Positions 1 to 14,265 of a stretch of DNA of 64,000 bases are shown here, one piece after another (position 1 is the first letter of the stretch; the number at the start of each line of letters is the position of its first letter). The stretch lies in the NCBI GenBank assembly GCA_020247395.1, contig JADCJC010000007.1, forward strand, positions 2,434 to 66,433. The letters run 5' to 3'. This stretch comes from Rhodocyclaceae bacterium (lineage in GTDB: Bacteria > Pseudomonadota > Gammaproteobacteria > Burkholderiales > Usitatibacteraceae). The notes beneath the pieces were generated by a model. The model saw only the letters and a list, made by a program, of their open reading frames with translations. It did not search any database and was not told where the DNA came from. The position numbers were made by a program, and so were the translations under genes.

Positions 1-1
1 G

Positions 2-1672
2 CGCTCCGTTATTGTGAAAAGACTCTCAGCCATTGAGGACTTGGGTGCGATGGACGTGCTTTGTACCGACAAGACCGGTACACTAACCGAAGCCCGGGTC
101 GCGCTGGTGGAAAGTCTGGACCTCGATGGCCAGGCGAGCTCGCATGCGCATACGCTGGCCTTCCTCAACAGCAACTTTGAAACCGGTGTGCGCACGCCAA
201 TGGACGATGCAGTGTTGGCTTACGCGACACCCGAGCACACAGGGTGGCACAAGCTTGGTGAGATTCCGTTCGACTTTGACCGGCGCCGCGTGTCGGTGCA
301 TGTGGCGCGCGAAGTGGTGGGTGAGACGGCCACTGAGCACGCGTCATTGCTTGTCACCAAGGGCGCGCCCGAGGATGTGCTAAGCCTTTGCAGCGCATAC
401 GAGCGCCGCGATGCGGGCAACGATGGGCAGGAGAGCCAGCTGCCGATGGAGGATGCGGAACGACAACGCGCGCGCGCACTCTACGACCGGCTCGGCAATG
501 AGGGCTTTCGTGTGCTGGCGGTAGCGTGGAAGGCTTTGCCCACTGAAATGCACGCCGATTTGGCCGCTGCAGAGAACGCCATGGTATGCGCTGGCTTTCT
601 GGCCTTTCTTGATCCACCCAAGGTCAGTGCGGCGAACTCGATTCGTGAGCTGGCGACGCGGGGCGTTCGTGTCAAGGTAGTGACCGGCGATAACGAATTG
701 GTCACGCGCCGCGTTTGCCACGCCCTAGGCATGCATCCTCAGCGCATTATGTTGGGCAGCGAACTTGTTGTCATTGACGATGCGCAGCTCGACGCGCTGG
801 TGGAGGGCATCGATGTGTTTTGTCGCATCAATCCTGCGCAGAAGAAGCGCATCGTCGAGGCATTGCGTCGCCGCGGCAACGTCGTGGGCTTTTTGGGTGA
901 CGGTATCAACGACGCACCGGCGTTAATCGCGGCTGATGTGGGCCTCTCGGTCGACAGCGCAGTCGACATCGCCAAGGAAGCGGCAGACATGATTCTGCTC
1001 AAGCCTGATCTTGTCGTGCTGCGCGACGCGGTGGTCGAGGGACGCCGCACGCTGGTGAACATCCGCAAGTATGTCCTGATGGGAACCAGTTCCAATTTCG
1101 GCAATATGTTCAGCATGGCTGGTGCCTCGCTGTTTCTCCCCTTCTTAGCGATGCTGCCCACGCAGATACTGCTCAATAACATTCTTTACGACCTTTCGCA
1201 GGTGGCGATTCCGACCGATCGCGTCGATGAAGTGGAACTTGCCAGCCCGCAGCACTGGGACATGTCTGTCATTCGTAACTTCATGCTGATGATTGGCCCC
1301 GTCAGTTCGCTGTTTGACTTCGTGACCTTCTATTTGCTTCTCAAGTTTCTCGATGCCAACGAATCCATGTTTCAAACCGGCTGGTTCATCGAGTCGCTCG
1401 CCACGCAGGTATTGGTGATTTTTGTGATTCGCAGCCAGTACCCGGCATTCGGCGCGCGGACCAGTCGTCCTGCATGGCCGGTGGTTGTTGCCACGCTGTC
1501 GATGCTATGTGTGGCCTGGCTCCTCACAGTGACGCCCGTCGGCCATTACTTCGGCTTCTCAACTTTGCCCGCGCATGCCTTCGCAGTGCTGGTGGCGCTG
1601 GTACTGATCTACCTCGTTCTAGTGGAAATCATGAAGATGTTTTTTTACCGGCACTTCTCGACCAATCCTTGA
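2..1672 (+). CDS. mgtA: Mg2+-transporting P-type ATPase, C-terminal ~556 aa (5' end outside window)
   Basis: The frame is open from base 2 (RSVIVKRLSAIEDLGAMDVLCTDKTGTLT). It carries the phosphorylation motif DKTGT, the hinge GDGINDAPAL, and an MgtA-type C-terminal membrane segment (LLNNILYDLSQVAIPTD...GPVSSLFDFVTF). Confidence 0.8.
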   Translation, partial: RSVIVKRLSAIEDLGAMDVLCTDKTGTLTEARVALVESLDLDGQASSHAHTLAFLNSNFETGVRTPMDDAVLAYATPEHTGWHKLGEIPFDFDRRRVSVHVAREVVGETATEHASLLVTKGAPEDVLSLCSAYERRDAGNDGQESQLPMEDAERQRARALYDRLGNEGFRVLAVAWKALPTEMHADLAAAENAMVCAGFLAFLDPPKVSAANSIRELATRGVRVKVVTGDNELVTRRVCHALGMHPQRIMLGSELVVIDDAQLDALVEGIDVFCRINPAQKKRIVEALRRRGNVVGFLGDGINDAPALIAADVGLSVDSAVDIAKEAADMILLKPDLVVLRDAVVEGRRTLVNIRKYVLMGTSSNFGNMFSMAGASLFLPFLAMLPTQILLNNILYDLSQVAIPTDRVDEVELASPQHWDMSVIRNFMLMIGPVSSLFDFVTFYLLLKFLDANESMFQTGWFIESLATQVLVIFVIRSQYPAFGARTSRPAWPVVVATLSMLCVAWLLTVTPVGHYFGFSTLPAHAFAVLVALVLIYLVLVEIMKMFFYRHFSTNP

Positions 1673-2130
1673 GGCTTGCGATAGAACAATTAGTATGGCG
1701 GCCGCATCCTGCAATTGTGCGGTGGGCGCGCACCGTGAGGATGACGAACTTGCGTTCTTTCCCGCTTCTTGCATATGTCGTTGCCCATCAAGGTCTGCGT
1801 GTTCACTTAGAGCGAGTGGTTGCGGAGTTGCAGGCGGATTTTTGCATGCTCGTCGGCGGCTGGCAGGATTTGCTGCGCAAGCTGATTTCGTTCTGCGAAC
1901 GTAGTATGAGCAATCTGCATGTGGATGTCACGACTTTTGTCACGATGCATCGACACCTATTGAAGGGCGCTGACACGGGCTTACTATCAATCGCACCTCG
2001 TGACTTTAACTAGGATGTGCTGAACGGGAGTTGCGCGGCGCAACTGGCGAGGTGGCGTTGGCGACACCGAAAGATAAGTAGCGGTTAGATTCGCTGACTA
2101 TCTCTATTTGATGTCGTCATTCGTCTTAGG

Positions 2131-3219
2131 CTATAGCGGTACCACAATGCCAATACGTGTGCCCTGGCCTGTGACGGACTCGACGGTAACGGTTCCGCCC
2201 ATCGCCATAGCGCGTTCACGCATGCCGACCAAGCCGAATGAGTCCGACGATGGCGCTAATGCTGGATCCATGCCAACGCCATCGTCCCGCACCGAGACGG
2301 CCAGAGAGCCGCTTTGGTGCGTAAGCTCCACAGACACGATTTTAGCCTGCGCATGTTTGACAATGTTGTTCAGAGATTCCTGCACCATGCGGTAGATGGG
2401 GGACGCGATTTCGTCGGGTATTGTCATTTCGTCGGGTGGCAACGCGACACGAATTGTCAGCCCATAGCGGCGGCTGATTTCTTCGCTCAATAGTGTCAAT
2501 GCAGCAGGCAAGCCTAGGTCGTCGAGCGGACGCGGGCGCAGATCAGCCGAAATGCGACGCACGGCAGTGATGGCCGTATAGAGCAACTCGTCGATGCCCG
2601 TGACGCGGTTAAGCAAGTCATTACGGTCCTGCGGAAGTTCACCACGCAGCAACATCAAGTCGATACGTAGCGCCGCGAGCATTTGCCCGAGGTCGTCGTG
2701 CAGTTCGCGGGCGATGCGTTTGCGCTCTTGCTCCCGCACGTCCTGCATACCGTCGTAGAGGGCACGCAGCGATTCTTGAGAGGCTTCAAGTTGCCGCAGC
2801 ATCTGCTTGCGGGTCGTAATGTCGCGTAGGATGATAGTGAAATAGTGTTGATCGTCCTCGATCACATGTGAAATGGATGCATCGATGGGGAACTCTTCCC
2901 CTGAGGCCCGGACGCCGACCACATTGGCTTCGCCACCCATTCGACGCACGCTTTGGCCCGTTTTGCTGAAGTGCTCAATATGTTCGGCATGTGCGGCATG
3001 AAAGCGCATCGGGATCAACTTTGAGATGTGTGCGTGCATAAGCGTATCGGCTGCGTAGCCAAACACTTGCTCGGCAGCCTTGTTCGCAAACGTGACGTAA
3101 TGCAGGTGGTCGACCATGATGATCGCATCGGTGGTCGTGTTGACCAGCGCAGCCAAACGCCGCTCTCGCGTACTGGCACTCTCGTTGGATTGGGGATTGC
3201 CGACGTTAGACATGGTCAT
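2131..3219 (-). CDS. PAS-domain sensor histidine kinase, HisKA_3 (NarL-partner) type
   Basis: N-terminal PAS-like region (TTDAIIMVD...FPIDASISH), H-box ELHDDLGQ, and a C-terminal HATPase (VRDDGVGM...GLVGMRERA). Confidence 0.8.
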   Translation of the reverse strand: MTMSNVGNPQSNESASTRERRLAALVNTTTDAIIMVDHLHYVTFANKAAEQVFGYAADTLMHAHISKLIPMRFHAAHAEHIEHFSKTGQSVRRMGGEANVVGVRASGEEFPIDASISHVIEDDQHYFTIILRDITTRKQMLRQLEASQESLRALYDGMQDVREQERKRIARELHDDLGQMLAALRIDLMLLRGELPQDRNDLLNRVTGIDELLYTAITAVRRISADLRPRPLDDLGLPAALTLLSEEISRRYGLTIRVALPPDEMTIPDEIASPIYRMVQESLNNIVKHAQAKIVSVELTHQSGSLAVSVRDDGVGMDPALAPSSDSFGLVGMRERAMAMGGTVTVESVTGQGTRIGIVVPL

Positions 3220-3532
3220 CGCTCCGAGTGTCGCAAAGTAGCTATCGGACGTTTTTTGGGGCGCGCCTGCGTACGCACGGCATCCGAAAGATGCTTACAA
3301 ATCTGTGGGAGGTAGTACAGGACAGGGGAAAACGACTACTTTGCGGCAGGCAACAATGTGACGATCAACAGCGGTGCCTCTCCCTGACGTATTATACGTA
3401 GTGGAACCGTGCTTATTGATGGCGAAGTCGATGGGAATGTCATCACCCTCAGCGGTAACCTGCGTGTCAATCTAAAGGTGGCGAATGCGCTGTACGCGGC
3501 TGGTGGTCAGCTTTGCGTCAATGGCGTGTCGG

Positions 3533-4573
3533 TCAGGCACGCCCCGCTTCACGTTGCCCGGCTGGTTTCTCCTCATCAATTTCAGACTCGCGAGACGTGA
3601 AGATATCGCTGCACAAGCGCTGAAGTAGCGGCACGCCGCGCACCTCGGTCTCATAAAGCGGCACGATGGCGCGCACGTTATCGCCAAATTCGCGCAAGAT
3701 GGTCTGCATGTGCTCCTGCTGCATCGCTAGACGGTTCTTGACGAAGTCTGCGGCATCGGCACCGACCGTCTTGGGGTCGATCACCATGTTGACAAGTACA
3801 CCACCGACCGGAATGCCGAAGTCCTTGAACCACTGCATGAAGCGCGTCACCACTGCGATTGGCAGCGCCTCTGGCAGCGTGATGAAATAGAAAGCAGTTA
3901 GTTTAGGGTCGGTGAGCAGTACACGCGCCTTGTCCATGCGATCACGGAACGAGACCAAGTAGTTCATCAACGGGTCTTCTTCTTTTTTCTTGGTAAAAGA
4001 GAGCATCTCACGAAGGCTGCGCGCTTCTTCACGGCTCTTCAGCATCTTGTTGACCCATAATGAATAGACCGAGGACATGCCGAGAAGTCGCCGCGCGTTC
4101 GCGGTTGGTGCGGTGTCGAACACATACACGTCGTATTCGTTCTTCAGCATCAGATCGACCATGCTTTCAAACATAGCTGATTCTTCGAAGGCGGGATTCA
4201 TGGTGGCCGATTCGACGAAGTCATCCGCCTTGGTCGTGATGTCGGCAAATTTCAAAAACCAGCGAATTTTTTCTCGAATCTCCACCTTATTGCGCTCGAT
4301 GCTTTCGCGTGTGTCGATCTCATTGGCCCACAGATTGGGAACACCGTCGATGGCCACGTGTTTGCCGAGCATGTCGCGGCTGAACAGGCCACTTAGACTG
4401 TGTACCGGATTGGTCGAGACCAGCAGGGTACGTTTTCCCTGACGCGCAATACCAATCGCGGCGGCAGCTGCAAACACAGTCTTTCCGACGCCACCTTTAC
4501 CGCCGAAGAATAGATACTTTAGCGACGGATGCTCGCGCAAATGGCGGTTCATGTTGATGGTGATTTCGGGCAT
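3533..4573 (-). CDS. ArsA/Get3-class P-loop ATPase, single-domain (copy B)
   Basis: P-loop FFGGKGGVGKT, the motifs TNPVHSL and DTAPT, and only one Cys. The ATG at 4573 is preceded by GGGGAGAG. Confidence 0.75.
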   Translation of the reverse strand: MPEITINMNRHLREHPSLKYLFFGGKGGVGKTVFAAAAAIGIARQGKRTLLVSTNPVHSLSGLFSRDMLGKHVAIDGVPNLWANEIDTRESIERNKVEIREKIRWFLKFADITTKADDFVESATMNPAFEESAMFESMVDLMLKNEYDVYVFDTAPTANARRLLGMSSVYSLWVNKMLKSREEARSLREMLSFTKKKEEDPLMNYLVSFRDRMDKARVLLTDPKLTAFYFITLPEALPIAVVTRFMQWFKDFGIPVGGVLVNMVIDPKTVGADAADFVKNRLAMQQEHMQTILREFGDNVRAIVPLYETEVRGVPLLQRLCSDIFTSRESEIDEEKPAGQREAGRA

Positions 4574-4605
4574 CGCCACTCTCCCCGTTTAAGTCAGTTC
4601 CGCCA

Positions 4606-5577
4606 TTAAGCGAACATTGCAGCGGACATTTTTTCGATCATGGCGAGTCCCGTCACATCGCGTTCCATCTCGGGTACTTGCGCCATCAACTGCTTGCCGA
4701 ACGCAGTCTGCAGGTGCCCCATATGCTCATCCTGCATGGCGATACGGTTACGCAGGTACTCGGGAATGTTCTGCTTCAGCAAATCGCGCGGGATGACGCG
4801 ATTGACCACATAGCCCGCTACTGGCACGCTGAATTGTTCGAACATGAGTGCCGCTTTCTTTGTGTCATCAATCACCATCGCTTCCGGCACCACAACAAAA
4901 TAGAACGCAGTCTTTTGTTTGTCGGTGAGAATGCCAGCCGAAGTATTGATGCGGTTTTTTATGTAAAGGAGCTCATTGAGTATCTGGTCCTGTTCATTGG
5001 TCTGGTCACGACGGATACGGCGCACCATCTCCTCGTATTCACGCATCTCCTCGCGCAACTTGGTGACCTTGTTAATCCATTCATCGTACACCTTCGCCAT
5101 CGACAGGTAGTAGAGCGCATGTCCCAGTGGTACCAGATCGTAAATGTAATAGTCGAAATCGCCTTTCATCACTACATCAACCACCGCGTCGAAGATGGCG
5201 CTTTCTTCCATGGCCGGTTCCGCACTAGCGGCTTGAATGTAGTTTTCAATTTCCTCCGGCACGGCGGGCATGCCGTACATGTCGAGAATCTTCCTGCGAA
5301 TTTCGTCTTGATAGGTTCGGATGTGGCTGTCGGCGTCGATCTCCTGTGCCCACAGGTTCTGCATGATCGGCACAGGCCCTTTGCCGAAGATATCTTTCTT
5401 AAAAATGTCGGTAAGAGACGCCTGCGGATCGACCGAGAACAGCAGCACTTTTTTACCCTGGCTCGCCAGCCAGAAAGCGGCGGCGGCCGAGAAAGTGGTT
5501 TTACCGAGTCCGCCCTTGCCGCCGAACATGATGTAGCGGCGCTCGGGATGGTCGAGAAACGCTTGTTTTAGTCCCAT
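4606..5577 (-). CDS. ArsA/Get3-class P-loop ATPase, single-domain (copy A, divergent switch motif)
   Basis: P-loop FGGKGGLGKTT. It has DPQASL in place of DPAHS and DLVPLGH in place of DTAPTGH, and contains no Cys. The ATG at 5577 is preceded by GAGGGAG. Confidence 0.75.
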   Translation of the reverse strand: MGLKQAFLDHPERRYIMFGGKGGLGKTTFSAAAAFWLASQGKKVLLFSVDPQASLTDIFKKDIFGKGPVPIMQNLWAQEIDADSHIRTYQDEIRRKILDMYGMPAVPEEIENYIQAASAEPAMEESAIFDAVVDVVMKGDFDYYIYDLVPLGHALYYLSMAKVYDEWINKVTKLREEMREYEEMVRRIRRDQTNEQDQILNELLYIKNRINTSAGILTDKQKTAFYFVVVPEAMVIDDTKKAALMFEQFSVPVAGYVVNRVIPRDLLKQNIPEYLRNRIAMQDEHMGHLQTAFGKQLMAQVPEMERDVTGLAMIEKMSAAMFA

Positions 5578-5588
5578 GACGTGCTCCC

Positions 5589-5870
5589 TCAACCGAACAT
5601 TGCATCGGCCACGTCTTTTTCACGCAGCATGCGTCGCTTCCAAGTGGCAATCTGCGGCACCACATAGGGCAGCAAGCGCAGGCTGTAGTAGGGCGGCAAA
5701 ATCGGAATGCCGAGCAGGTCGCCCATTGTTATGAGAATGAACAGGTGCTCCATCGACGCACGTGTACGCAAAGCGGCGCGGCTCATATCGTGCGCGGCCA
5801 TGCCGTAAACCGTATCGCTAAGGTTGTGCCAAATACGTTTTGCCAAGGCTTCTTTCTCTTCGTCGGTCAT
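5589..5870 (-). CDS. small conserved hypothetical protein (93 aa), paralog 1 of the ArsA-linked pair
   Basis: An AAGGAG Shine-Dalgarno sequence lies 9 nt before the ATG at 5870. The core GIPILPPYYSLRLLPYVVPQIATWKRRMLRE is shared with the next ORF. The stop lies 11 nt upstream of the ATG (5577) of ATPase copy A. Confidence 0.6.
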   Translation of the reverse strand: MTDEEKEALAKRIWHNLSDTVYGMAAHDMSRAALRTRASMEHLFILITMGDLLGIPILPPYYSLRLLPYVVPQIATWKRRMLREKDVADAMFG

Positions 5871-5909
5871 GTTCATTACTCCTTTGAAATCAGTCACATA
5901 AACAGAAGA

Positions 5910-6158
5910 TTAAATGCCGTGCAAGTGATGTTCATGGTCACTGCCCAACTCGCGCTCGCGTAGCACACGTCGCTTCCAGCCTTCGAGTTGCGGCACAACG
6001 TACGGCAACAAGCGTAGCGCGTAATAGGGCGGCAGGACGGGTACGCCCACTATCTCGCCATGTAACGCGAGCAGAAACAGTGTTTCGAGTGAGCCGCGCA
6101 TTTCGCGAGCCTGCTGCACGATTTCATAAGTGGCAAAGCCGTAGAAGAACTCGCGCAT
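5910..6158 (-). CDS. small conserved hypothetical protein (82 aa), paralog 2, His-rich C-terminus
   Basis: Internal Met of track ORF 5910..6629. The core GVPVLPPYYALRLLPYVVPQLEGWKRRVLRE is paralogous to 5589..5870, and the protein ends DHEHHLHGI. Confidence 0.55.
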   Translation of the reverse strand: MREFFYGFATYEIVQQAREMRGSLETLFLLALHGEIVGVPVLPPYYALRLLPYVVPQLEGWKRRVLRERELGSDHEHHLHGI

Positions 6159-6225
6159 GGCGGTGCGCCAGCGCTCACCACTAGATGTTGTGGCTTCGTG
6201 TGCTGTGCTATCGTACGGAAACATC

Positions 6226-6840
6226 ATGGAACCTATCGGAATTATTGCGGTTATCATCGTCGCCTGGTTTGCGGCCGGTACGATTTGGAACGTGCACAAG
6301 GGCCGCGAAGTCATGCGCTGGTTGCAGCAGGGATTGCCGCAGCTCGGGGCGCGTACGACGGTGCGCTGGCTCGGCTCCAGCGTCGTAGAGTTGGTGATAC
6401 AAAATCCCGTCGCGCCGTTCTCCGCGATCACGCTCATTGTATTCTTGCGCGCCCGCGATCTGCCCTGGGGTTGGTTCGGTCGCCGTCGCGATGCGCTGAT
6501 CGTGCGTGCCATGCTTAACAGCGCACCAACGCAAGAATGCGAAGTGCTCGACGAATCCACTTGGTCTGGGCATGAAGCGCGGTCGCGCATACCGCAAGCA
6601 TGGCGCAAACGAGATGACGCCAAGCTCACGATCTATCATGCGCATCCCGCAGCGCCGCCACACCTGAATCAGATGCTGACGAGATTGCGCCAGAGCGGCT
6701 ATGTGTTGCACCGCCTGTCGCTTCGCGCCGCCGCGCCGCACTTTCAGATTCATATCGCGATGCCAAATGTTGAAGTGCCGACCAAGTCTTCGCGCGAATT
6801 GGCTGGACTGATGCGTGATGTTGCACAACATATGGCGTGA
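6226..6840 (+). CDS. hypothetical protein with N-terminal transmembrane anchor, divergent from the ArsA module
   Basis: The ATG at 6226 gives MEPIGIIAVIIVAWFAAGTIW (hydrophobic). Third codon positions are GC-rich, whereas the overlapping minus-strand ORFs are Arg-rich junk. Confidence 0.5.
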   Translation: MEPIGIIAVIIVAWFAAGTIWNVHKGREVMRWLQQGLPQLGARTTVRWLGSSVVELVIQNPVAPFSAITLIVFLRARDLPWGWFGRRRDALIVRAMLNSAPTQECEVLDESTWSGHEARSRIPQAWRKRDDAKLTIYHAHPAAPPHLNQMLTRLRQSGYVLHRLSLRAAAPHFQIHIAMPNVEVPTKSSRELAGLMRDVAQHMA

Positions 6841-6931
6841 GCCGATTGTTTGAGCGGTCTGCATTGCAATGCGCCTGAGTTATGCAGTGGCTGTCGCGTT
6901 GATTGTCGCTGTTTGACGCCGTTGGCTAGCC

Positions 6932-8854
6932 TCAGGCCTGACGCGTCGCTACGCTCGGTGGCACCGGTGCAGCGGGTGTTTGACCGTAGCGCATGTAGGC
7001 CTTGTAGCCATCCCACCCAATCATCAATGCGGCAATGAACAGCAGCACCGACACACCGATCATCGCCCATGCTCCTGCCACCGGCAACCCGCTCATCTCG
7101 GGATTGGCAGCGATGGTCACGTAGAGGTTGCGCGCCGTGACGATGGTGGCTGCAAGCGTAGTGATGTACATGAACACCATTGGGACAACCGCGTAGGCCG
7201 GGCTGCGTTTTTCCGAGCGCAGCCAGACGGACACCACGATCAGACTCAGTGCAGCCATCAGCTGATTGGAGGCACCGAACATCTGCCATAGATAGACCCA
7301 AGTTCCCGTCAACACCAGCGCCAGCGTGAGGCCCATCGAAATCACGCTCGACACATGCATATTGCGAACTGGTGGAATCAGATCGCCCACCCACTCGGTC
7401 AGCGTGACACGCATGACACGGAACACTAGCTGCGTCACCGTCAATACGATCACGACGAACGTACCGAAGCCCAGTGCGGTGCCGAAAATTTCCGGAGTCG
7501 CGCCGAAACTGCCCGCGTAGACGAGCTTTCCCACACCTTGCGCAAAGCGTCCACCGCCACCACCAGCACCGGCGATCGACACAGCCGTCAATGAGAGCAA
7601 TGCGAGAGTGTTTTCTCCTAGCATGCCGCCTGCACCTACCGGCAGCGCATCGGTCTCGTATTCAAGTTGCCGGGCGGTGCCCACCGAGCCAACCAGCGCA
7701 TGCCAACCGGAGATAGCACCACAAGCGATTGTCACGAATAGCATTGGCCACAGCGGCTGCCATGCTTTGCCCTCCTGCACGGTGAAGCCCATGTCTTTCA
7801 AGGCGGGCAATGCGAATTGTCCGATCAAATTGCCAGCCGCATCCTTGGTGTCGAGTAGTGGGGCGACGACCATGCCGACGGCGCTCAGCAGGATCGTAAT
7901 CAGCATCACCCAGAAACCGATATACGCAACGGGCTGCGCGAATCGCCAGATCGGTAGATTGGCACCCATGTAGCTGAAGCCGAACAGAAACACCAGCCAT
8001 AACAAATAATTGGGCAAGGTTTTCAGTAGTCCAGTTTCAGCATCGTAAGCAGGCGTGGATACACGTTTTCCGTCTTTGCCCGGCGCGGGAATGCGTGGAT
8101 CAGCAGCTGTCGGGTCGACGACTGTAAATAAAGCCTTGTGATCATTGATGCTGTCGACACTGCTGTTCAAGGAGGCGACGACCGCTGCAACCGGGCCGTT
8201 TACCAACGCCCCCTTGTCATCGCGGTGTTGCCCCCACGGGCCGGCCGCCATGCCCACTAAAGTAAGCGTGACGACCAGAGCAGTGACACCTACTATGCTC
8301 AACTTCCAGCGGTACATCATTTGCCCGGCGAGTAATCCCATCAGCGCGAGTACCACAATGCCAAAGGGCACATCGGGCCGCGCAGAGAGAATCGCTGCAA
8401 GAATGCCGATGAAGGCACCCGCCAGCAGCATCAGGTAAAAAAAGATGAACACGAACAGTATCGTGCGCGTGCGTGGCGCTATGAGCCGGTGGGCGATGGC
8501 CGAAAGACTGTTCCCGTCGTTGCGCACCGCCACCATGATCGCCGAGTAGTCGCTGACCCAGCCGATGAAACTCACCCCCAGCACAAGCCATGCAAGTGCG
8601 GGAGACCATCCCCACAAGTTGGCTGCCGTGATCGGACCGACGATCGGCCCGGCCGCCGCAATGGCCTTGAAGTGATATCCGAACAGCACGTTGCGGCTGG
8701 TCGGCATGAAGTCCACACCATCCATGTACATCCGTGCCGGCGTGGCGCGCTTTGGATCGGCCTGAATGACGTCGCGGTCGATGCGCTTGGCGTAGAAATT
8801 GTATGCAACGTAAATGGTGATAACACCGATCACCACAATCCAGAGAGTGTTCAT
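6932..8854 (-). CDS. cstA: carbon starvation protein A family transporter
   Basis: CstA-type N-terminus (DGVDFMPTSRNVLFGYHFKAIAAAGPIVGP) in a polytopic membrane protein. The ATG at 8854 is preceded by CAGGAGG. Confidence 0.85.
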   Translation of the reverse strand: MNTLWIVVIGVITIYVAYNFYAKRIDRDVIQADPKRATPARMYMDGVDFMPTSRNVLFGYHFKAIAAAGPIVGPITAANLWGWSPALAWLVLGVSFIGWVSDYSAIMVAVRNDGNSLSAIAHRLIAPRTRTILFVFIFFYLMLLAGAFIGILAAILSARPDVPFGIVVLALMGLLAGQMMYRWKLSIVGVTALVVTLTLVGMAAGPWGQHRDDKGALVNGPVAAVVASLNSSVDSINDHKALFTVVDPTAADPRIPAPGKDGKRVSTPAYDAETGLLKTLPNYLLWLVFLFGFSYMGANLPIWRFAQPVAYIGFWVMLITILLSAVGMVVAPLLDTKDAAGNLIGQFALPALKDMGFTVQEGKAWQPLWPMLFVTIACGAISGWHALVGSVGTARQLEYETDALPVGAGGMLGENTLALLSLTAVSIAGAGGGGGRFAQGVGKLVYAGSFGATPEIFGTALGFGTFVVIVLTVTQLVFRVMRVTLTEWVGDLIPPVRNMHVSSVISMGLTLALVLTGTWVYLWQMFGASNQLMAALSLIVVSVWLRSEKRSPAYAVVPMVFMYITTLAATIVTARNLYVTIAANPEMSGLPVAGAWAMIGVSVLLFIAALMIGWDGYKAYMRYGQTPAAPVPPSVATRQA

Positions 8855-8944
8855 ATCGGCCTCCTGTTCTCTGTGGTGCCGCATGATTGCAACACCGGTA
8901 ATGACTACCTAGGAAGTATTGTGTCCCTGTGAGCTAAGGCGCTA

Positions 8945-8958
8945 TTGATCGTTATCAA
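8945..8958. promoter_or_regulatory. perfect FNR/CRP-family box TTGAT-CGTT-ATCAA upstream of cstA
   Basis: Read directly as ttgatcgttatcaa. The centre lies about 97 bp upstream of the cstA ATG. It overlaps a second palindrome, TGATCGTT-ATC-AACGATCA. Confidence 0.6.
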
Positions 8959-8968
8959 CGATCATGCA

Positions 8969-9238
8969 CTATGCGCCCTTGTTCGCTGCCGCCGTCGCAA
9001 CGTAGCGCACACAATCGTCGATGGTCATGAGCTTGGCATAAGCGCTTTCGGGAATCTCAATCTCGAAGGTTTGATGCAGACCGATCATGAAATTCAGTGC
9101 GTCCATCGAGTCCATATCGAGTTGGTCACGCACTGGCTTATCCGATTTCAGTGTCTGCTCTTCGAGTTCGGGCACCACTTTGGCAAGCGCCTCCAGAATG
9201 TTTTTGCGGATTTCTGCTTCAGTCATAGCCTGCGTCAT
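8969..9238 (-). CDS. acyl carrier protein-like (phosphopantetheine-binding) protein
   Basis: 89 aa with the PP-attachment motif DQLDMDSMDALNF. The start overlaps the E2 stop by 4 nt. Confidence 0.7.
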   Translation of the reverse strand: MTQAMTEAEIRKNILEALAKVVPELEEQTLKSDKPVRDQLDMDSMDALNFMIGLHQTFEIEIPESAYAKLMTIDDCVRYVATAAANKGA

Positions 9239-10425
9239 AGCGCCTCCGGGGTTTGCAGTAGTCTTGAAATGGCGGCGAGGTAAAGCGCACCGCAGTGACC
9301 ATCACTCGCGCGATGGTCGGCTGCGAGGGTGATCGTCACCACCGGATGCACGCCGACATGTCCATTGATTGCCCAGGCCCGTTCAACGATGCTTCCAAAC
9401 CCCACCAAGGCCAATTGCGGTGGATAGATCACACCGAACACGGCCTCCACTCCGCGGTCGCCGAGGCTGGTGAAGGTGATGGTGCTGTCGGTGATTTCGC
9501 TGCTGCGCAGTCCGCCCGAACGGGCGCGGCGCACCAATTCGGACAGTGCCTGCATCAAGGTGGAAAGGGGAAGGGTATCCGTGTTGTGAATTGCAGGGGC
9601 AATCAAACCGCCGCCGCGTATCGAGATGGCGTTACCTGCATGAATTTCACTGCTCAACACGGCACGCCCGTCGCGCCAAAAACCGTTTAGCTCAGGCACT
9701 TCGCGCAGCGCCAGCGCGGCGGCCTTAACCAGCAACACCCCAGTGGTGATGCGCTTGGTAATCGGTGATCCTTTGTTGTACGCATGCAGCCACTCAAGTG
9801 CCGTGCGCATGTCTACCGTGGTGGCAAGGTAGTAGTGCGGAATCTCACGTTTCGAGCGCGCCATCGCCGTCGCGATCGCTAGACGCATCTGGTCTGGATC
9901 AAAGCCGTGCAAACGGCGTGGCGATGCGGGCGTGGGTACAGATGCCGCGGCTGCCGCAGCGCGTTCGACATCAGAAACGGTGATCGCTCCGTTGATACCG
10001 CTGCCACCTATAGCGTTGATATCGATACCAAGTTCTCTCGCGCGTTTGCGAGCGGCGGGACTTGACTTCGTAACGTAGCTGCCCGGTGCTGGAGCCGTAG
10101 GCGCGACAGTTGGCACAGCAGCGCCGACAAGCGAGGGCGCGGGGTTAGGATGCGGCAATGGTGTTGCCGGTTGTGCCGTAGCTGCCAGTTCGCCTGCAAC
10201 ACGCACATGCGCAAGCAGGGCACCGACCTTGAGCTCAACATCGAGCGGCACGAGATCCTCAATGATGCCGTCGAGGAAGATCTCGACATCAATTGCGCCT
10301 TTGTGTGTTTCCACCACCGCAACCACGTCACCCGACCTGACTTGCGCCCCCGGCTGCACCAGCCATTGCACGACCTTGCCCGTCTCCATATCGGCTCCGA
10401 GTGAGGGCATCAGGAAATCAGCCAT
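9235..10425 (-). CDS. dihydrolipoamide acyltransferase (E2) of a 2-oxo acid/acetoin dehydrogenase complex
   Basis: Lipoyl domain (VVAVVETHKGAIDVE), a Pro/Ala linker, a peripheral subunit-binding domain (SPAARKRARELGIDINAIGGSG) and a catalytic domain (AADHRASDG). Confidence 0.85.
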   Translation of the reverse strand: MADFLMPSLGADMETGKVVQWLVQPGAQVRSGDVVAVVETHKGAIDVEIFLDGIIEDLVPLDVELKVGALLAHVRVAGELAATAQPATPLPHPNPAPSLVGAAVPTVAPTAPAPGSYVTKSSPAARKRARELGIDINAIGGSGINGAITVSDVERAAAAAASVPTPASPRRLHGFDPDQMRLAIATAMARSKREIPHYYLATTVDMRTALEWLHAYNKGSPITKRITTGVLLVKAAALALREVPELNGFWRDGRAVLSSEIHAGNAISIRGGGLIAPAIHNTDTLPLSTLMQALSELVRRARSGGLRSSEITDSTITFTSLGDRGVEAVFGVIYPPQLALVGFGSIVERAWAINGHVGVHPVVTITLAADHRASDGHCGALYLAAISRLLQTPEAL

Positions 10426-10452
10426 GTTGTGCTGTGCCTTGGGCGTCGTCAA

Positions 10453-11460
10453 TCAGTTCGACCGCACCAATCGATGCGCTTCACGAACGATATCGGCTAC
10501 CTTCGGCAATGCTGCTTCTTCCAAATGTTCGGCATAGGGCATCGGCACCTCGCGCGCGCAGATGCGGGCAATCGGCGCGTCGAGGTCAAAGAAGGCATGT
10601 TCCGCGAGCCGCGCGGCGATTTCGGCGGAGATCGAGCCACTTTTCCAGCCTTCATCGACAATCACGCAGCGGCGTGTTCGCCTCACGCTATCGAAGATCG
10701 CCGCTTCATCGAGTGGCCGCAGGACTCGCAGATCGAGTACTTCGGCCACGATACCATCGCTGGCCAAGATGTGGGCAGCATTGAGACACTTCGGCAGACT
10801 GTTGCCGTAGGTGATAAGACTCACGTCGGCGCGTCCACCGGCGCCAGCGTGCATCAACCTAGCGTGCTGAATGTCGACACTCTTGACGTTTGAATCAAGC
10901 GTAGCCTCCGCGTTGTAGAGCACGATGTGTTCGAAGATTAGCACTGGGTTCGGGTCTGCGAGCGCCCTCGCGAGCATGAAGCGTGCATCTTCCACAGTGC
11001 CCGGTGCCAACACCTTAAGGCCCGGAATGTGCGCAAACCAGCCCTCCAGACTGTGGGAGTGCTGTGCGCCTAGTTGTCGTCCACCCCCGGTGGCCATGCG
11101 AATGACCAACGGCACCGCGAATTGACCGCCCGACATATGCGGAATGGTTGCCGCATTGTTGAGGATCTGGTCAAGGGCGAGCAAGCTAAAGTTGCAGGTC
11201 ATGATTTCGACAATCGGCCTCAAGCCCGCCATCGCCGCACCGATGCCCACGCCGACAAAACCGTTTTCTGCCAGCGGCGTATCGACGATGCGCTCGGGGC
11301 CGAACTCCTCAAGCAGACCTTTCGTCACACCATAACATCCGCCATACTTGCCAACGTCTTCTCCCATCACGAAGGTACGCGGGTCGGCCAAGAGCGCATC
11401 GCGGATCGCCTGCTTGCAGGCTTCACGGTAGGTCAGACGTTGCGGCACGCTAGTACTCAT
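10453..11460 (-). CDS. 2-oxo acid/acetoin dehydrogenase E1 beta subunit
   Basis: Transketolase-like pyrimidine-binding and C-terminal domains ([10 protein letters not shown]...[11 protein letters not shown]). An ATGA overlap couples it to the E1 alpha stop. Confidence 0.85.
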
Positions 11461-12491
11461 CGCGATGCTTCCCATCTCGCTGCTTCAGGCTCTGCGTCCA
11501 TAAGCACAAAACGCTCCAAGTCGGCTAGTGGCTCAAGCGTTCCTGCCGCTGCGAAGGCGACGGCATTGTCAAGTTCGGCATCGATCTCAGCGTCGATGCG
11601 CGCGAGCTCGGCCTCCGTGATCTGTTGGTTGCTGGACATCCAACTCTGCAGTTTCTCGATCGGATCGAGGTGCCTCCAACGTTCAACCTCGTCACGCGTG
11701 CGATAGGCTTGTGTGTCAAACATCGAATGCGCACGGAAGCGATAGGTTCGGCATTCGAGAAACACCGGCCCGGCATCGTCATTCGCGATATTGTCCCGAA
11801 TGCTCTCAACTGCGGCTTGCGCCGCCACTTGCACGGCCACCGGATCCATGCCATCTACTTGTTCCGACCTCATGCGATAACACGCCGCCTTTCGCCAGAC
11901 ATCCGTTTGCACGTCGGCATCGCTGAAGGGCACACCCATCGAGTACAGATTGTTTTCGCAAATGAAGAGTACGGGCAGCTTCCAGAGCTGGGCCAGATTC
12001 ATCGTTTCGTGGAATACACCCTCGCCAACTGCACCTTCGCCGAAGAAACATGCGGTGACCGCGCCACGCTTCAGGCGTTTGTCCGCCATCGCAATGCCAG
12101 CGGCAAGCGGCAGTCCGCCACCGACGATCGCGTTGCCACCAAAGAAACGCGTCCTAGCATCGAACACGTGCATCGATCCGCCGCGCCCGCGGCTGGTGCC
12201 TTCGAACTTGCCCATCATCTCAGCCATCAACGCATTCATTGACACGCCGCGCGCGAGCGCCTGCCCGTGTTCCCGATAAGTGGCGACTACCGCGTCTTGC
12301 GGCTTCAGAGCACTCATGACACCTGCCGCGATCGCCTCTTCACCATCGTATAGATGCAAGAAGCCGCGAATCTTTTGCGCTTGATAAAGCTCAACGCACT
12401 TTGCCTCAAAGCGACGGATTCGCAACATCTGCCGGAGAAGTTTGTGCAGATGTGCACGGTCGAGGTGAACTCTGGCCTTGTTCATATGCAT
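11457..12491 (-). CDS. 2-oxo acid/acetoin dehydrogenase E1 alpha subunit (TPP-dependent)
   Basis: TPP-binding region ([19 protein letters not shown]...[10 protein letters not shown]). The start is taken at the ATG at 12491 to avoid overlapping acsA. Confidence 0.85.
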
Positions 12492-12504
12492 TCCGTGATC
12501 GTGA

Positions 12505-14265
12505 TCATGTGCTCGTTTCCAGCGTTGAGAGATCGCCTTCGGGTAAGCCAAGCTCACGTGCCTTCAACAGACGGCGCATGATTTTGCCGCTTCGCGTCTT
12601 CGGAAGGCTCTGCGCGAATTCCAGCTGTTTCGGTGCAATCGCAGCGCCGAGACGGTGGCGCGCATGGGCGAGCAGCGCGCGTCGTAATTCTTCGTTTGCC
12701 GCATAACCGCTCTTCAGCGAGACGAAGGCTTTAATGAGTTCAAAGGCGACTGGATCGGGCTTACCAATCACGCCCGCCTCCGCGACGGCGGGATGCTCCA
12801 TCAACACGCTTTCGACTTCGAACGGGCCGATGAGATGGCCAGATGTCTTGATCACGTCATCCTTGCGCCCAATAAACCAGTAATAGCCATCGCAGTCACG
12901 TTTGGCAAGATCGCCAGTGAGATACCAGCCGTCGGCAAAACATGTCTTGTACCGATCGGATTGATTGAGATAGGCGCGAAACATCGATGGCCATCCTGCC
13001 TTCAACGCCAACTCGCCCTGTTCGTCCGGGTTTTCGATCACGTTGATACGGCCCGCTTTGTCCTGCGCCACCAATGCGGCCTCAATTCCGGGCATGGGCT
13101 TGCCCATCGAACCGGGGCGAATATCCATCGCGGCAAAATTCGCTAGCATGATGCCGCCGGTTTCGGTTTGCCACCAGTTGTCGTGAAACGGCAGTCCGAA
13201 CGCGTCCACGCCCCAGCGCACTGCTTCGGGATTGAGTGGCTCACCGACGCTCGCCAGAAATCGCAGGTCCGGCGTGCGATGCTGCCGCACAAGATCGAGC
13301 CCAGCCTTCATCATCATGCGAATCGCGGTCGGTGCCGTGTACCACACACTGACACGGTGATTTTGTAGGATGTTGTACCAGCGCTCTGCGTCGAACTCTG
13401 CTTCATCGACGATGCTGGTCACACCATTGGTGAGCGGCGCAATGATGCCGTACGAAGTGCCGGTAACCCAACCCGGATCGGCCGTACACCAGTAAATGTC
13501 GTCAGGGTGCAAATCAAGCGCGAGCTTGCCGGTGATGTGATGCGCGACCACCGCTTCATGCACATGCACCGCGCCTTTGGGTATGCCAGTGGTGCCGCTG
13601 GTGAAATGCAGCAGTGCTATGTCGTCAGGACGCGTTGGTGCGATAGTGTAAGCGTCGCTGCTCGCTTCCATTAAGGCATCCCAAGAAAGCGTGTTTGGTG
13701 GAGGCGCGCCTTCATTCTCGCTGACCAGAATCACGTGCTTTAAGGTAGGCAGGTCAGCGCGCACCGGTATGATCTTTCTTTTGTAGAGCGCTGGCGTTGT
13801 CACCAGTACTGAAGCTTCACCGAGATTCATGCGTTGACGGATCGGTTCCGGACCGAACGCGGAGAACAGGGTGCAGAAGACGGCTCGGTGCTTCCATGTA
13901 CCGAGGGCGGCCAGATACAACGCCGGAATGCGGCCCGTCAATGCAAACACGCGATCTCCAGCATTGATGCCCAATGAAGATAATGCGTTTGCAAAGCGGT
14001 TCGAAAGCAGGCTCAGTTCACCAAACGTAAACTCACGTTTGCTGCCGTCGCGCGCCAGCCAGCGAATCGCAGCATGTATCGCTCGCACAGTGTGTGCATG
14101 GCGGTCAACAGCTTCATAGGCGATATTGAGACCTTGGCTGCCAGGAAGTCCATCGAGTTCTTGGCGCGCACGCGCCCAAGTAAACTGCCGCTTGTAAGCC
14201 GCATAATCGGCGAGATTCGGTGCAACGCCCAAGCCTACAGATTTGCGGATGACGTCTGACACCAC
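12505..14265 (-). CDS. acsA: acetyl-CoA synthetase, Bacillus AcsA-like AMP-forming ligase
   Basis: AMP-binding motif [13 protein letters not shown], then [11 protein letters not shown] and [10 protein letters not shown]. It is colinear along its length with the AcsA-type N-terminus ([11 protein letters not shown]). Confidence 0.8.

Follow-up and report, generated by a model that had tools for sequence, protein, structure and literature searches.

A conserved six-gene cassette linking two ArsA/Get3-class ATPases and two DUF7990 small proteins to a CstA-family permease in a Rhodocyclaceae bacterium and its relatives in soil phyla

In 2010, Castillo and Saier described 26 bacterial and archaeal clusters in which the permease gene cstA is accompanied by genes for single-domain ArsA homologues of about 330 amino acids (aa), some of them adjacent pairs sharing 25-31% identity (PMC2963123; Int J Microbiol 2010:187373). 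A small protein, CstX (about 90 aa, with a single transmembrane segment, TMS), was encoded in 24 of the 26 clusters, sometimes in duplicate, and evolved more slowly than the ATPase, while CstY (about 210 aa, single TMS) was found in five archaea; ars and cst genes never shared an operon (PMC2963123). The trees of these proteins indicated co-evolution, and the in silico proposal was that CstA draws its energy from the ATPase by way of CstX as a linker (PMC2963123). Here, we analysed a related locus in a 64,000-nucleotide (nt) stretch of DNA from a Rhodocyclaceae bacterium (GenBank assembly GCA_020247395.1, contig JADCJC010000007.1, forward-strand positions 2,434 to 66,433; hereafter the window), in which a first-pass annotation had singled out four tightly packed same-strand genes for two ArsA/Get3-class ATPases (A and B) and two small paralogous proteins (1 and 2). 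These four genes make up the probably cytoplasmic part of a six-gene cassette consisting of cstA, a CstY-like gene, two CstX/DUF7990 genes and two genes for ArsA-like ATPases (Table 1).

Compared by description, the module matches the cstA-cstX-(cstY)-arsA clusters feature for feature, with ArsA homologues of about 330 aa that are sometimes paired, CstA, a putative CstX of about 90 aa that is sometimes present twice, a candidate CstY of about 210 aa, and no ars genes. The difference lies in CstY, which was there confined to five archaea, whereas here a CstY-like gene is fixed in a bacterial cassette; size, topology and position suggest that the anchored protein encoded by this divergent open reading frame (ORF) corresponds to CstY. 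The cluster type itself has thus been known, in silico, since 2010. What is new is the predicted catalytic asymmetry of A and B, a near-invariant CstX-type paralogue, a bacterial CstY-like protein with a fold lead, the connection of DUF7990 to cory-CC-star and, probably, to CstX, and the finding that the cassette extends so widely through soil phyla. The 2010 paper contains neither the asymmetry, nor the near-invariance of the CstX core, nor the fold of CstY, all of which come from the present analysis. Later work following up the cstA-arsA prediction was not found in the literature; searches for cory-CC-star, PF25952 and DUF7990 returned nothing, and those for CstX only the 2010 paper among spider-toxin matches. 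A Park Grass metaproteome preprint mentions CstA and an unrelated arylsulfatase, "Arsa".

Scanning a single genome for each GTDB species gave more than 570 sites encoding relatives of the small proteins, and the best 80 loci were examined, their gene order being read by tblastn with the window proteins. Almost everywhere the contigs allowed, the same order was seen: cstA, the anchored ORF on the opposite strand, small protein 2, small protein 1, ATPase A and ATPase B. Identity to the window proteins was 74-93% for small protein 1, 55-72% in 80 loci for small protein 2, 66-88% for A and 64-87% for B; CstA was 58-85% identical at the same position in 64 of the 80 loci and about 40% identical in two divergent ones, and the anchored protein was 31-52% identical, in the same place and orientation, in 59. 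The hosts are Beta- and Alphaproteobacteria, Steroidobacterales and Acidithiobacillales as well as Acidobacteriota (Terriglobia, Thermoanaerobaculia), Chloroflexota (Anaerolineales, Caldilineales, Thermoflexus) and Myxococcota (Anaeromyxobacteraceae), so that the cassette spans at least five phyla and is widespread in soil bacteria. When all flanking ORFs were crudely clustered, every other family was limited to at most 19 of the 80 loci, and no metalloenzyme, metal transporter or ars gene was conserved in the neighbourhood of the cassette.

The linkage also persists where the genes have been rearranged and have diverged, with ATPase identity down to 47-63% and CstA identity to 31-44%. Two such clusters (L083 and L084) carry two DUF7990 genes, two arsA-like genes, a convergent cstA and a CstY-like gene for a 232-aa anchored protein, with a DUF7990 protein that is about 36% identical to small protein 1; a third (L086) consists of cstA, two DUF7990 genes and two arsA-like genes. 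A check of gene neighbourhoods had been recommended at first pass; in the related loci, including the rearranged ones, the small-protein genes always adjoin the ATPase pair. The permease of the window itself matches Pfam CstA at E 1.4e-102 and is a distant relative of the Escherichia coli pyruvate/H+ symporter CstA, scoring 168 bits against a cut-off of 1188; a sequence search found no solved structure of the CstA family.

Both ATPases proved to be single-domain ArsA/Get3-class proteins, as had been stated, with matches to Pfam ArsA_ATPase at E 6.6e-66 (A) and 4.1e-67 (B) and scores of 215 and 224 bits, respectively, against TIGR00345 (GET3/ArsA/TRC40); they are 36% identical to each other. 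Their nearest solved relatives are the archaeal Get3 proteins 3UG6 and 3ZQ6 (E 1e-52 to 1e-57) and Chlamydomonas ArsA1, with E. coli ArsA ranking behind them. With Get3/TRC40 they share the fold class, the P-loop and the overall length. Unlike Get3/TRC40, which is a zinc-linked homodimer, they are predicted to form a heterodimer, and the zinc-binding CxxC motif (CDFC and CEFC in archaeal Get3) is replaced by ADFV, which aligns with it in B, or by IPEY; moreover, B lacks the catalytic Asp that A keeps, and the Met-rich, hydrophobic client groove corresponds, as far as a sequence impression goes, to a shorter and charged region. All four proteins of the ATPase gene set are essentially devoid of Cys: A has none and B has one, the counts given at first pass, and 69 of 71 orthologues of A are likewise without Cys. 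The comparison with the mycobacterial pair Rv3679/Rv3680 (BagA/BagB) stands as a loose analogy between two-gene ArsA-like pairs but not as homology, for the similarity is remote. Orthology to BagAB was rejected, the scores of A and B being 52.6 and 51.6 bits against BagA (NF053622, cut-off 400) and 39.2 and 34.8 bits against BagB (NF053621, cut-off 521), and BagAB was not among the Protein Data Bank (PDB) matches of A or B at E 1e-10. BagAB has no known client and has been linked to stress from glycerol and nitric oxide (NO) (PMC10597346).

The two ATPases differ in their nucleotide-binding motifs in a fixed and complementary manner. Both carry a deviant Walker A P-loop as in Get3 (GGKGGLGKTT in A, GGKGGVGKTV in B). 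Switch I reads SVDPQAS in A and STNPVHS in B, and switch II reads YDLVPLGHALYYL in A (a variant, YDLVPLGH) and FDTAPTAN in B, each of these being invariant among about 70 orthologues. The first-pass annotation had suspected an asymmetry from DTAPT in B and from DLVPLGH and DPQASL in A, all of which are indeed present, but had not remarked on STNPVHS in B, which stands in place of the canonical STDPAHS. When B was aligned with archaeal Get3 (3UG6, 3ZQ6), its Asn fell on the Asp of STDPAHS and its AN on the GH of DTAPTGHT; this Asn occupies the position of the catalytic D57 of yeast Get3, whose D57N mutant is hydrolysis-dead. The P-loops differ as well: GGKGGVGKT is invariant in the orthologues of B, whereas GGKGG is found in 55 and GG[GA]GG in 16 of those of A. 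The signature Lys is therefore lost in 16 of 72 A sequences (the window and 71 orthologues), which read GGGGGVGKTT or GGAGGVGKTT (e.g., L012:7773-8861). In dimers with a deviant Walker A motif, the first Lys reaches across the interface to the nucleotide of the partner, so the signature Lys of A would be dispensable because it would serve the degenerate site of B. The same motif states of A and B recur in the diverged clusters. This complementary degeneracy leads us to infer, in agreement with the first reading, that A and B form an obligate asymmetric heterodimer, in which A would be the catalytically competent subunit, its site served by the invariant Lys of B, and B a nucleotide-binding, non-hydrolysing subunit with a degenerate site.

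The small proteins, correctly recognised as paralogues (48% identity, E 6e-29), had been left without a family at first pass. They do have one: precomputed Pfam assignments put PF25952 (DUF7990) on a sequence identical to small protein 1, on the 104-aa form of small protein 2 and on all listed homologues, even though our local Pfam copy gave no family for either. The divergent ORF has no Pfam family. In NCBIfam, the window proteins score 28.9 and 36.1 bits against cory-CC-star (NF041419, cut-off 80 bits), small protein 2 at E 8e-7. They share with cory-CC-star the core LF.L...GD.LG.P...YY.L.L.PY and the position between cstA and an ArsA-family gene. The Cytobacillus spongiae plasmid that illustrates this position was found by tblastn of ATPase A against plasmids (small protein 1 itself gave no match there), and there the gene for carbon starvation protein A is followed by those for a hypothetical protein of 95 aa, cory-CC-star (WP_169215302.1, 85 aa, ending RCC) and an ArsA family ATPase. 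It differs from the window in having one such small protein and one ATPase, the latter canonical (STDPAHN, DTAPTGHT), and in its Cys-Cys end; a C-terminal Cys-Cys as a hallmark of cory-CC-star is suggested by the family name and this one member. Because the scores lie under the cut-off and the C-terminal Cys-Cys is absent, membership of the window proteins in the cory-CC-star equivalog was rejected; the last residues of small protein 1 are DAMFG and those of small protein 2 HLHGI, and 78 of 80 orthologues of small protein 1 lack Cys. The Cytobacillus protein, in turn, scores 125 bits against NF041419, and the DUF7990 profile matches it with an hhalign probability of 96.9% (E 1.8e-10). Given this match and the order of the Cytobacillus cluster, DUF7990 and cory-CC-star belong together as branches of a single family located between cstA and ArsA-like genes. 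DUF7990 comprises 5607 clusters at 90% identity, but no more than 421 representatives remain at 50% identity in a set of 1.84 billion proteins; cluster look-ups, like a profile search with divergent members, returned only proteins from metagenome-assembled genomes, in the former case all hypothetical. That the small ORFs are chance ORFs was rejected, since they are conserved in related genomes.

Conservation is most extreme in small protein 1. Its core of 71 residues, ending in DAMF, has a mean identity of 95% and a minimum of 82% to that of the window across 78 genomes, with 45 of the 71 columns invariant. This reflects extreme constraint and not recent transfer, because the anchored protein of the same cassettes has diverged to 31-52%. 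The C-termini define subtypes, namely ...REKD[VL][SA]DAMF for small protein 1, ...RERE[LF]xxxHE[HY]HLHG[ILVM] for small protein 2 and ...RERDLTDLCDQEI[TG] for a third. The His-rich tail of small protein 2, reported at first as DHEHHLHGI, is present and conserved at the extreme C-terminus of its subfamily as [DE]H[DE][HY]HL[HED]G[ILVM]; in Chloroflexota it has fewer His (EHDYHLEGL), and neither small protein 1 nor the third subtype nor the first-copy proteins of the diverged clusters carry it. An AlphaFold2 model of small protein 1 from a 79-sequence alignment was all-helical with no compact fold (predicted local distance difference test, pLDDT, 73.5; predicted template-modelling score, pTM, 0.36); neither this model nor the family profile had a match in the PDB, by fold and by sequence, respectively. 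Kyte-Doolittle hydropathy is borderline, at 1.61 and 1.64 in the window proteins and 1.28 in the Cytobacillus one. The hydrophobic stretch in the C-terminal half of DUF7990 includes Gly, Asp and Pro, and about 30 more residues, WKRRxLRE among them, come after it; on these grounds, we doubt that it spans the membrane.

Several further observations concern the same family. The AMF endings noted earlier in small protein 1 and ATPase A are part of a wider pattern, with DAMF in small protein 1, x[IA]MF[AT] or IMYG[KD] in A and GDA[ML]FA in several orthologues of B; this C-terminal motif, common to three cassette proteins, may be a shared docking peptide. In many Chloroflexota cassettes, a third DUF7990 gene, 57-64% identical to small protein 1, directly follows ATPase B. 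A further domain, about 100 aa long and weakly matching Pfam Thioredoxin_3 (E 0.004), occurs as a separate gene overlapping a DUF7990 start (L088:136-444) and is fused to the DUF7990 N-terminus in three proteins (P0121, P0172 and P0195; blastp E 1e-7 to 1e-19). The Cytobacillus 95-aa ORF (L089:5338-5625) resembles this domain by eye only, and blastp and family scans detected no significant similarity between them. A metagenomic small protein 1-small protein 2 chimera of 163 aa (P0001) has the look of an assembly artefact, with the join at the repeated WKRRxLRE, and a read-through ORF of 180 aa running from small protein 2 into small protein 1 (L027:7737-8276) may be a frameshift.

The start of small protein 2 almost certainly lies upstream of the ATG at 6158, probably at 6224 or 6227, because a conserved motif, W[RK]xA[LVI]REF, precedes 6158 in 80 related genomes, because most orthologues have Leu, Val or Ile at the Met of that ATG, and because the public gene call on the identical sequence is 104 aa long. 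The length of 82 aa and the 67-bp gap to the divergent ORF given at first pass are therefore probably wrong. The corrected start overlaps, head to head, the ATG of the CstY-like gene at 6226-6228 (ATGATG/CATCAT, window 6222-6228), and each promoter would therefore fall inside the other gene. No meaningful repeat was found in this divergent start region.

The divergent ORF itself, already listed as membrane-anchored, encodes a transmembrane (TM) segment at residues 3-21 (Kyte-Doolittle hydropathy 2.13) and has no relative in the PDB by sequence. AlphaFold2 modelled it with good scores (pLDDT 91.2, pTM 0.85) as an N-terminal helix (residues 2-34) followed by an alpha/beta domain, which should be cytoplasmic because basic residues follow the TM helix (positive-inside rule). 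In a Foldseek search the best match of the model was 6W6L chain 7 (E 4.7e-4, probability 1.0, template-modelling (TM) score 0.51) and the next 6T84, the mycobacterial TtfA (E 0.03, TM-score 0.42), with Bet v 1/PYL-like folds weaker. TtfA is an accessory factor of the MmpL3 transporter in trehalose monomycolate transport. The structure 6W6L is the human TMCO1 translocon, in which CCDC47 is the only subunit described with one transmembrane domain and a globular cytosolic domain (PMC7505659), so that chain 7 is, by elimination among the subunits, probably CCDC47. The 232-aa cstA neighbour of L083 weakly matched the anchored-protein profile (E 1e-4 among 11 targets) and scored below threshold against Pfam CCDC47 (PF07946; E 8.5e-4, 19 bits against 27.7), whereas none of 46 anchored proteins of the window family matched PF07946 at E up to 10. 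The modelled protein thus appears to bear a remote resemblance to CCDC47 (of the PAT complex/multipass translocon) and TtfA, with which it shares an N-terminal anchor and an alpha/beta domain and which are both accessory factors of multi-pass membrane-protein machines; it differs from them in having no significant sequence similarity and TM-scores of only 0.42-0.51. The likeness to CCDC47 is a weak lead and not family membership.

How these parts might work together can be tentatively proposed. The reading that we favour, at slightly less than an even chance, is an ATPase-permease complex in which the A/B heterodimer is tied through DUF7990 to CstA and ATP energises or gates transport. In such a complex, A and B would form an obligate heterodimer with one catalytic site on A, completed by the Lys of B, and one non-hydrolysing site on B; the two DUF7990 proteins would be permanent adaptor subunits tying the ATPase to the cytoplasmic face of CstA, and the CstY-like anchored protein would be a further accessory subunit. 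ATP binding and hydrolysis would then energise or gate the passage of a small carbon compound through CstA, by analogy with ArsA, which turns the carrier ArsB into an ATP-driven pump; the contact with CstA, the direction of transport and the substrate are all conjectural parts of this proposal. We favour it because the linkage spans phyla, rearranged clusters and the minimal Cytobacillus version, because the asymmetry is fixed, and because the 2010 proposal was reached independently. An adaptor role for the small proteins had also been suggested at first pass; it is a reasonable role, already proposed in 2010. The conserved CstA permease, the most informative part of the cassette, had been missed at first pass; its gene lies beyond the coordinates given then. 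With about 95% identity from phylum to phylum, the 71-residue core of the putative adaptor speaks for a tight multi-protein complex, and its contrast with the anchored protein at 31-52% would fit small protein 1 as a subunit with multiple contacts. The ArsA-ArsB pump of E. coli R773 likewise has an ArsA-class ATPase with two non-equivalent nucleotide sites that is thought to be attached to a secondary carrier. Its two halves, however, are fused in one polypeptide, whereas the cassette has two separate genes, no metalloid-binding Cys or arsenic regulon, an unrelated carrier (CstA, not ArsB/Acr3) and small adaptor proteins.

Several points weigh against an ATPase-permease complex. In E. coli, both CstA and BtsT act as pyruvate/H+ symporters and operate without an ATPase (PMC7730263, PMC5847655). 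The ArsA-ArsB precedent is an exporter whose ATPase binds its substrate in the cytoplasm, and it offers no obvious way of energising an importer from inside. cstA lies outside the ATPase transcription unit, as an oppositely oriented gene separates them. The equation of CstX with DUF7990/cory-CC-star is presumptive, drawn from position, size and the cluster in Cytobacillus. The hydrophobicity of the small proteins is borderline, and the pTM of their model is low. Finally, the only CstA::DUF7990 fusion seen (P0190) was downgraded as Rosetta-stone evidence, being a lone fragment whose contig is not on record.

The same parts could instead serve biogenesis, the ATPases being needed to build the CstA complex and not to run it: a Get3-like heterodimer would hold hydrophobic segments of DUF7990 or CstA and deliver them to the membrane, where the anchored protein would act as receptor or intramembrane chaperone. 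We regard this, the main rival, as unlikely. The nearest solved relatives of A and B are indeed archaeal Get3 tail-anchor chaperones and not E. coli ArsA; yet the Get3 CxxC zinc site is absent, and the region of the Met-rich groove seems, from sequence, shorter and, in A, highly charged (REEMREYEEMVRRIRRDQTNEQDQ). DUF7990 does offer one hydrophobic stretch in its C-terminal half, but its Gly, Asp and Pro and the roughly 30 residues after it, WKRRxLRE included, make it a poor tail anchor. As for the receptor, the anchored model is closest to the probable CCDC47, a chaperone subunit of the multipass translocon (PMC7505659), and then to TtfA, and the L083 homologue weakly matches Pfam CCDC47; against this, the fold matches are weak (TM-scores 0.42-0.51) and the window anchored family has no Pfam CCDC47 match. 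A chaperone for one client, encoded beside that client, would also be unusual. A further-reaching version, in which the cassette would be a self-contained prokaryotic membrane-protein assembly machine that builds or maintains CstA by means of a Get3-type heterodimer, a CCDC47/TtfA-like membrane-anchored receptor or chaperone and two near-invariant small helical subunits, seems to us improbable.

Metal delivery, one of the functions suggested at first pass, fares much worse and is in our view highly improbable. Here, the His tail of small protein 2 would bind Ni, Zn or Co and the ATPase pair would deliver the metal in the manner of HypB, UreG or CooC. ArsA-class proteins and the metal-delivery nucleoside triphosphatases do share one P-loop (SIMIBI) class, and the tail is conserved at the C-terminus of small protein 2. 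It is, however, confined to that one subfamily, being absent from small protein 1, the third subtype and the diverged first copies, and its His count falls in Chloroflexota; Cys is essentially lacking from the four proteins, and the conserved neighbour is CstA, with no metalloenzyme or other metal-related gene. The HypB, UreG and CooC models in Pfam and NCBIfam matched neither ATPase, and MeaB matched A only below threshold (13.6 bits against 23.1). A divergent arsenite/antimonite resistance ArsA whose transporter is encoded elsewhere has in its favour the name of the Pfam family and, in B, the partial DTAPT motif, but it is effectively refuted, and the earlier judgement that this is no arsenite pump was sound. 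The ATPases are single domains, with no tandem ArsA arrangement and no Cys triad; they have YDLVPLGH and FDTAPTAN in place of DTAPTGHT; and they score 97.5 and 119.6 bits against the ArsA equivalog TIGR04291, far below its cut-off of 650. Among the window ORFs, no ars gene (arsB, acr3, arsC, arsD or arsR) lies within about 10 kb of the cassette, consistent with the separation of ars and cst operons in the published clusters.

Table 1. Features of the cassette. Coordinates refer to the whole 64,000-nt stretch, position 1 being its first letter, except in the last row, which gives positions in other loci.
Feature	Coordinates	Strand	Remarks
cstA, CstA-family multi-pass permease	6932..8854	minus	640 aa from the conserved MNTLWIV start; alternative GTG at 8884
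CstY-like anchored protein, 204 aa	6226..6840	plus	N-terminal TM helix, then alpha/beta domain; divergent from small protein 2
Small protein 2, CstX-type DUF7990, probably 104 aa	5910..6224	minus	Start ATG 6224 (or 6227 = 105 aa)
Small protein 1, CstX-type DUF7990, 93 aa	5870..5589	minus	AAGGAG 8 nt 5' of ATG
ATPase A, ArsA/Get3-class, single-domain, 323 aa	5577..4606	minus	GAGGGAG ahead of gene
ATPase B, ArsA/Get3-class, single-domain, 346 aa	4573..3533	minus	GGGGAG ahead of gene
Third DUF7990 gene, examples	L052:10338-10583; L054:10402-10647; L058:10294-10533		Chloroflexota

In the window, small protein 2, small protein 1, A and B follow one another in the order first described, with gaps of 39, 11 and 32 nt. 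Besides the cassette, the ORFs of window positions 1-12000 encode a P-type ATPase fragment, a PAS-HisKA_3 kinase, an acyl carrier protein (ACP)-like protein and E2/E1beta/E1alpha. Directly upstream of cstA lies the ACP-like gene (8969-9238, minus strand; 89 aa, PP-binding), and upstream of this an E1alpha/E1beta/E2 operon of the 2-oxoacid or acetoin dehydrogenase type (9235-12557, minus strand); both recur in only about 11-12 of the 80 loci, all betaproteobacterial. A gene of about 598 aa resembling, by eye, an AMP-forming acyl/acetyl-CoA synthetase stands on the opposite strand downstream of B in 18 of the 80 loci (e.g., L003:10344-12065). Such neighbours are weak hints of a small carboxylate substrate, and they are not conserved across the range of the cassette. 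A PAS-HisKA_3-HATPase_c histidine kinase gene (2131-3219, minus strand) lies 313 bp downstream of ATPase B; no response regulator was seen beside it in the part read, and it is not conserved with the cassette, with one weak match in L070. Insertions within the cassette were seen elsewhere, namely a KatG-like catalase-peroxidase gene (737 aa, by eye) between small protein 1 and A (L012:5552-7765) and an M4-type metalloprotease gene (HELTH motif, 378 aa, by eye) between A and B (L065:7426-8562). An Rfam scan of window 2000-13000 gave no match, and the promoter and terminator scans were not used, because they gave fewer matches than shuffled controls.

The cassette touches two questions, namely the non-arsenic role of prokaryotic Get3/ArsA homologues and the transport mechanism of the CstA family. 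It offers a good test case for both, with six co-inherited genes, one ATPase subunit that is predicted to be naturally hydrolysis-dead and a near-invariant core in the putative adaptor. Should it serve assembly, bacteria would have in it a counterpart of eukaryotic biogenesis factors that joins GET and the PAT/multipass translocon in one operon, and it would provide the first defined client for bacterial Get3 homologues. If, on the other hand, the ATPase drives or gates CstA, this would be a second, independent recruitment of an ArsA-class ATPase to a secondary carrier, and an ATP-driven CstA could be relevant to how oligotrophic soil bacteria scavenge carbon.

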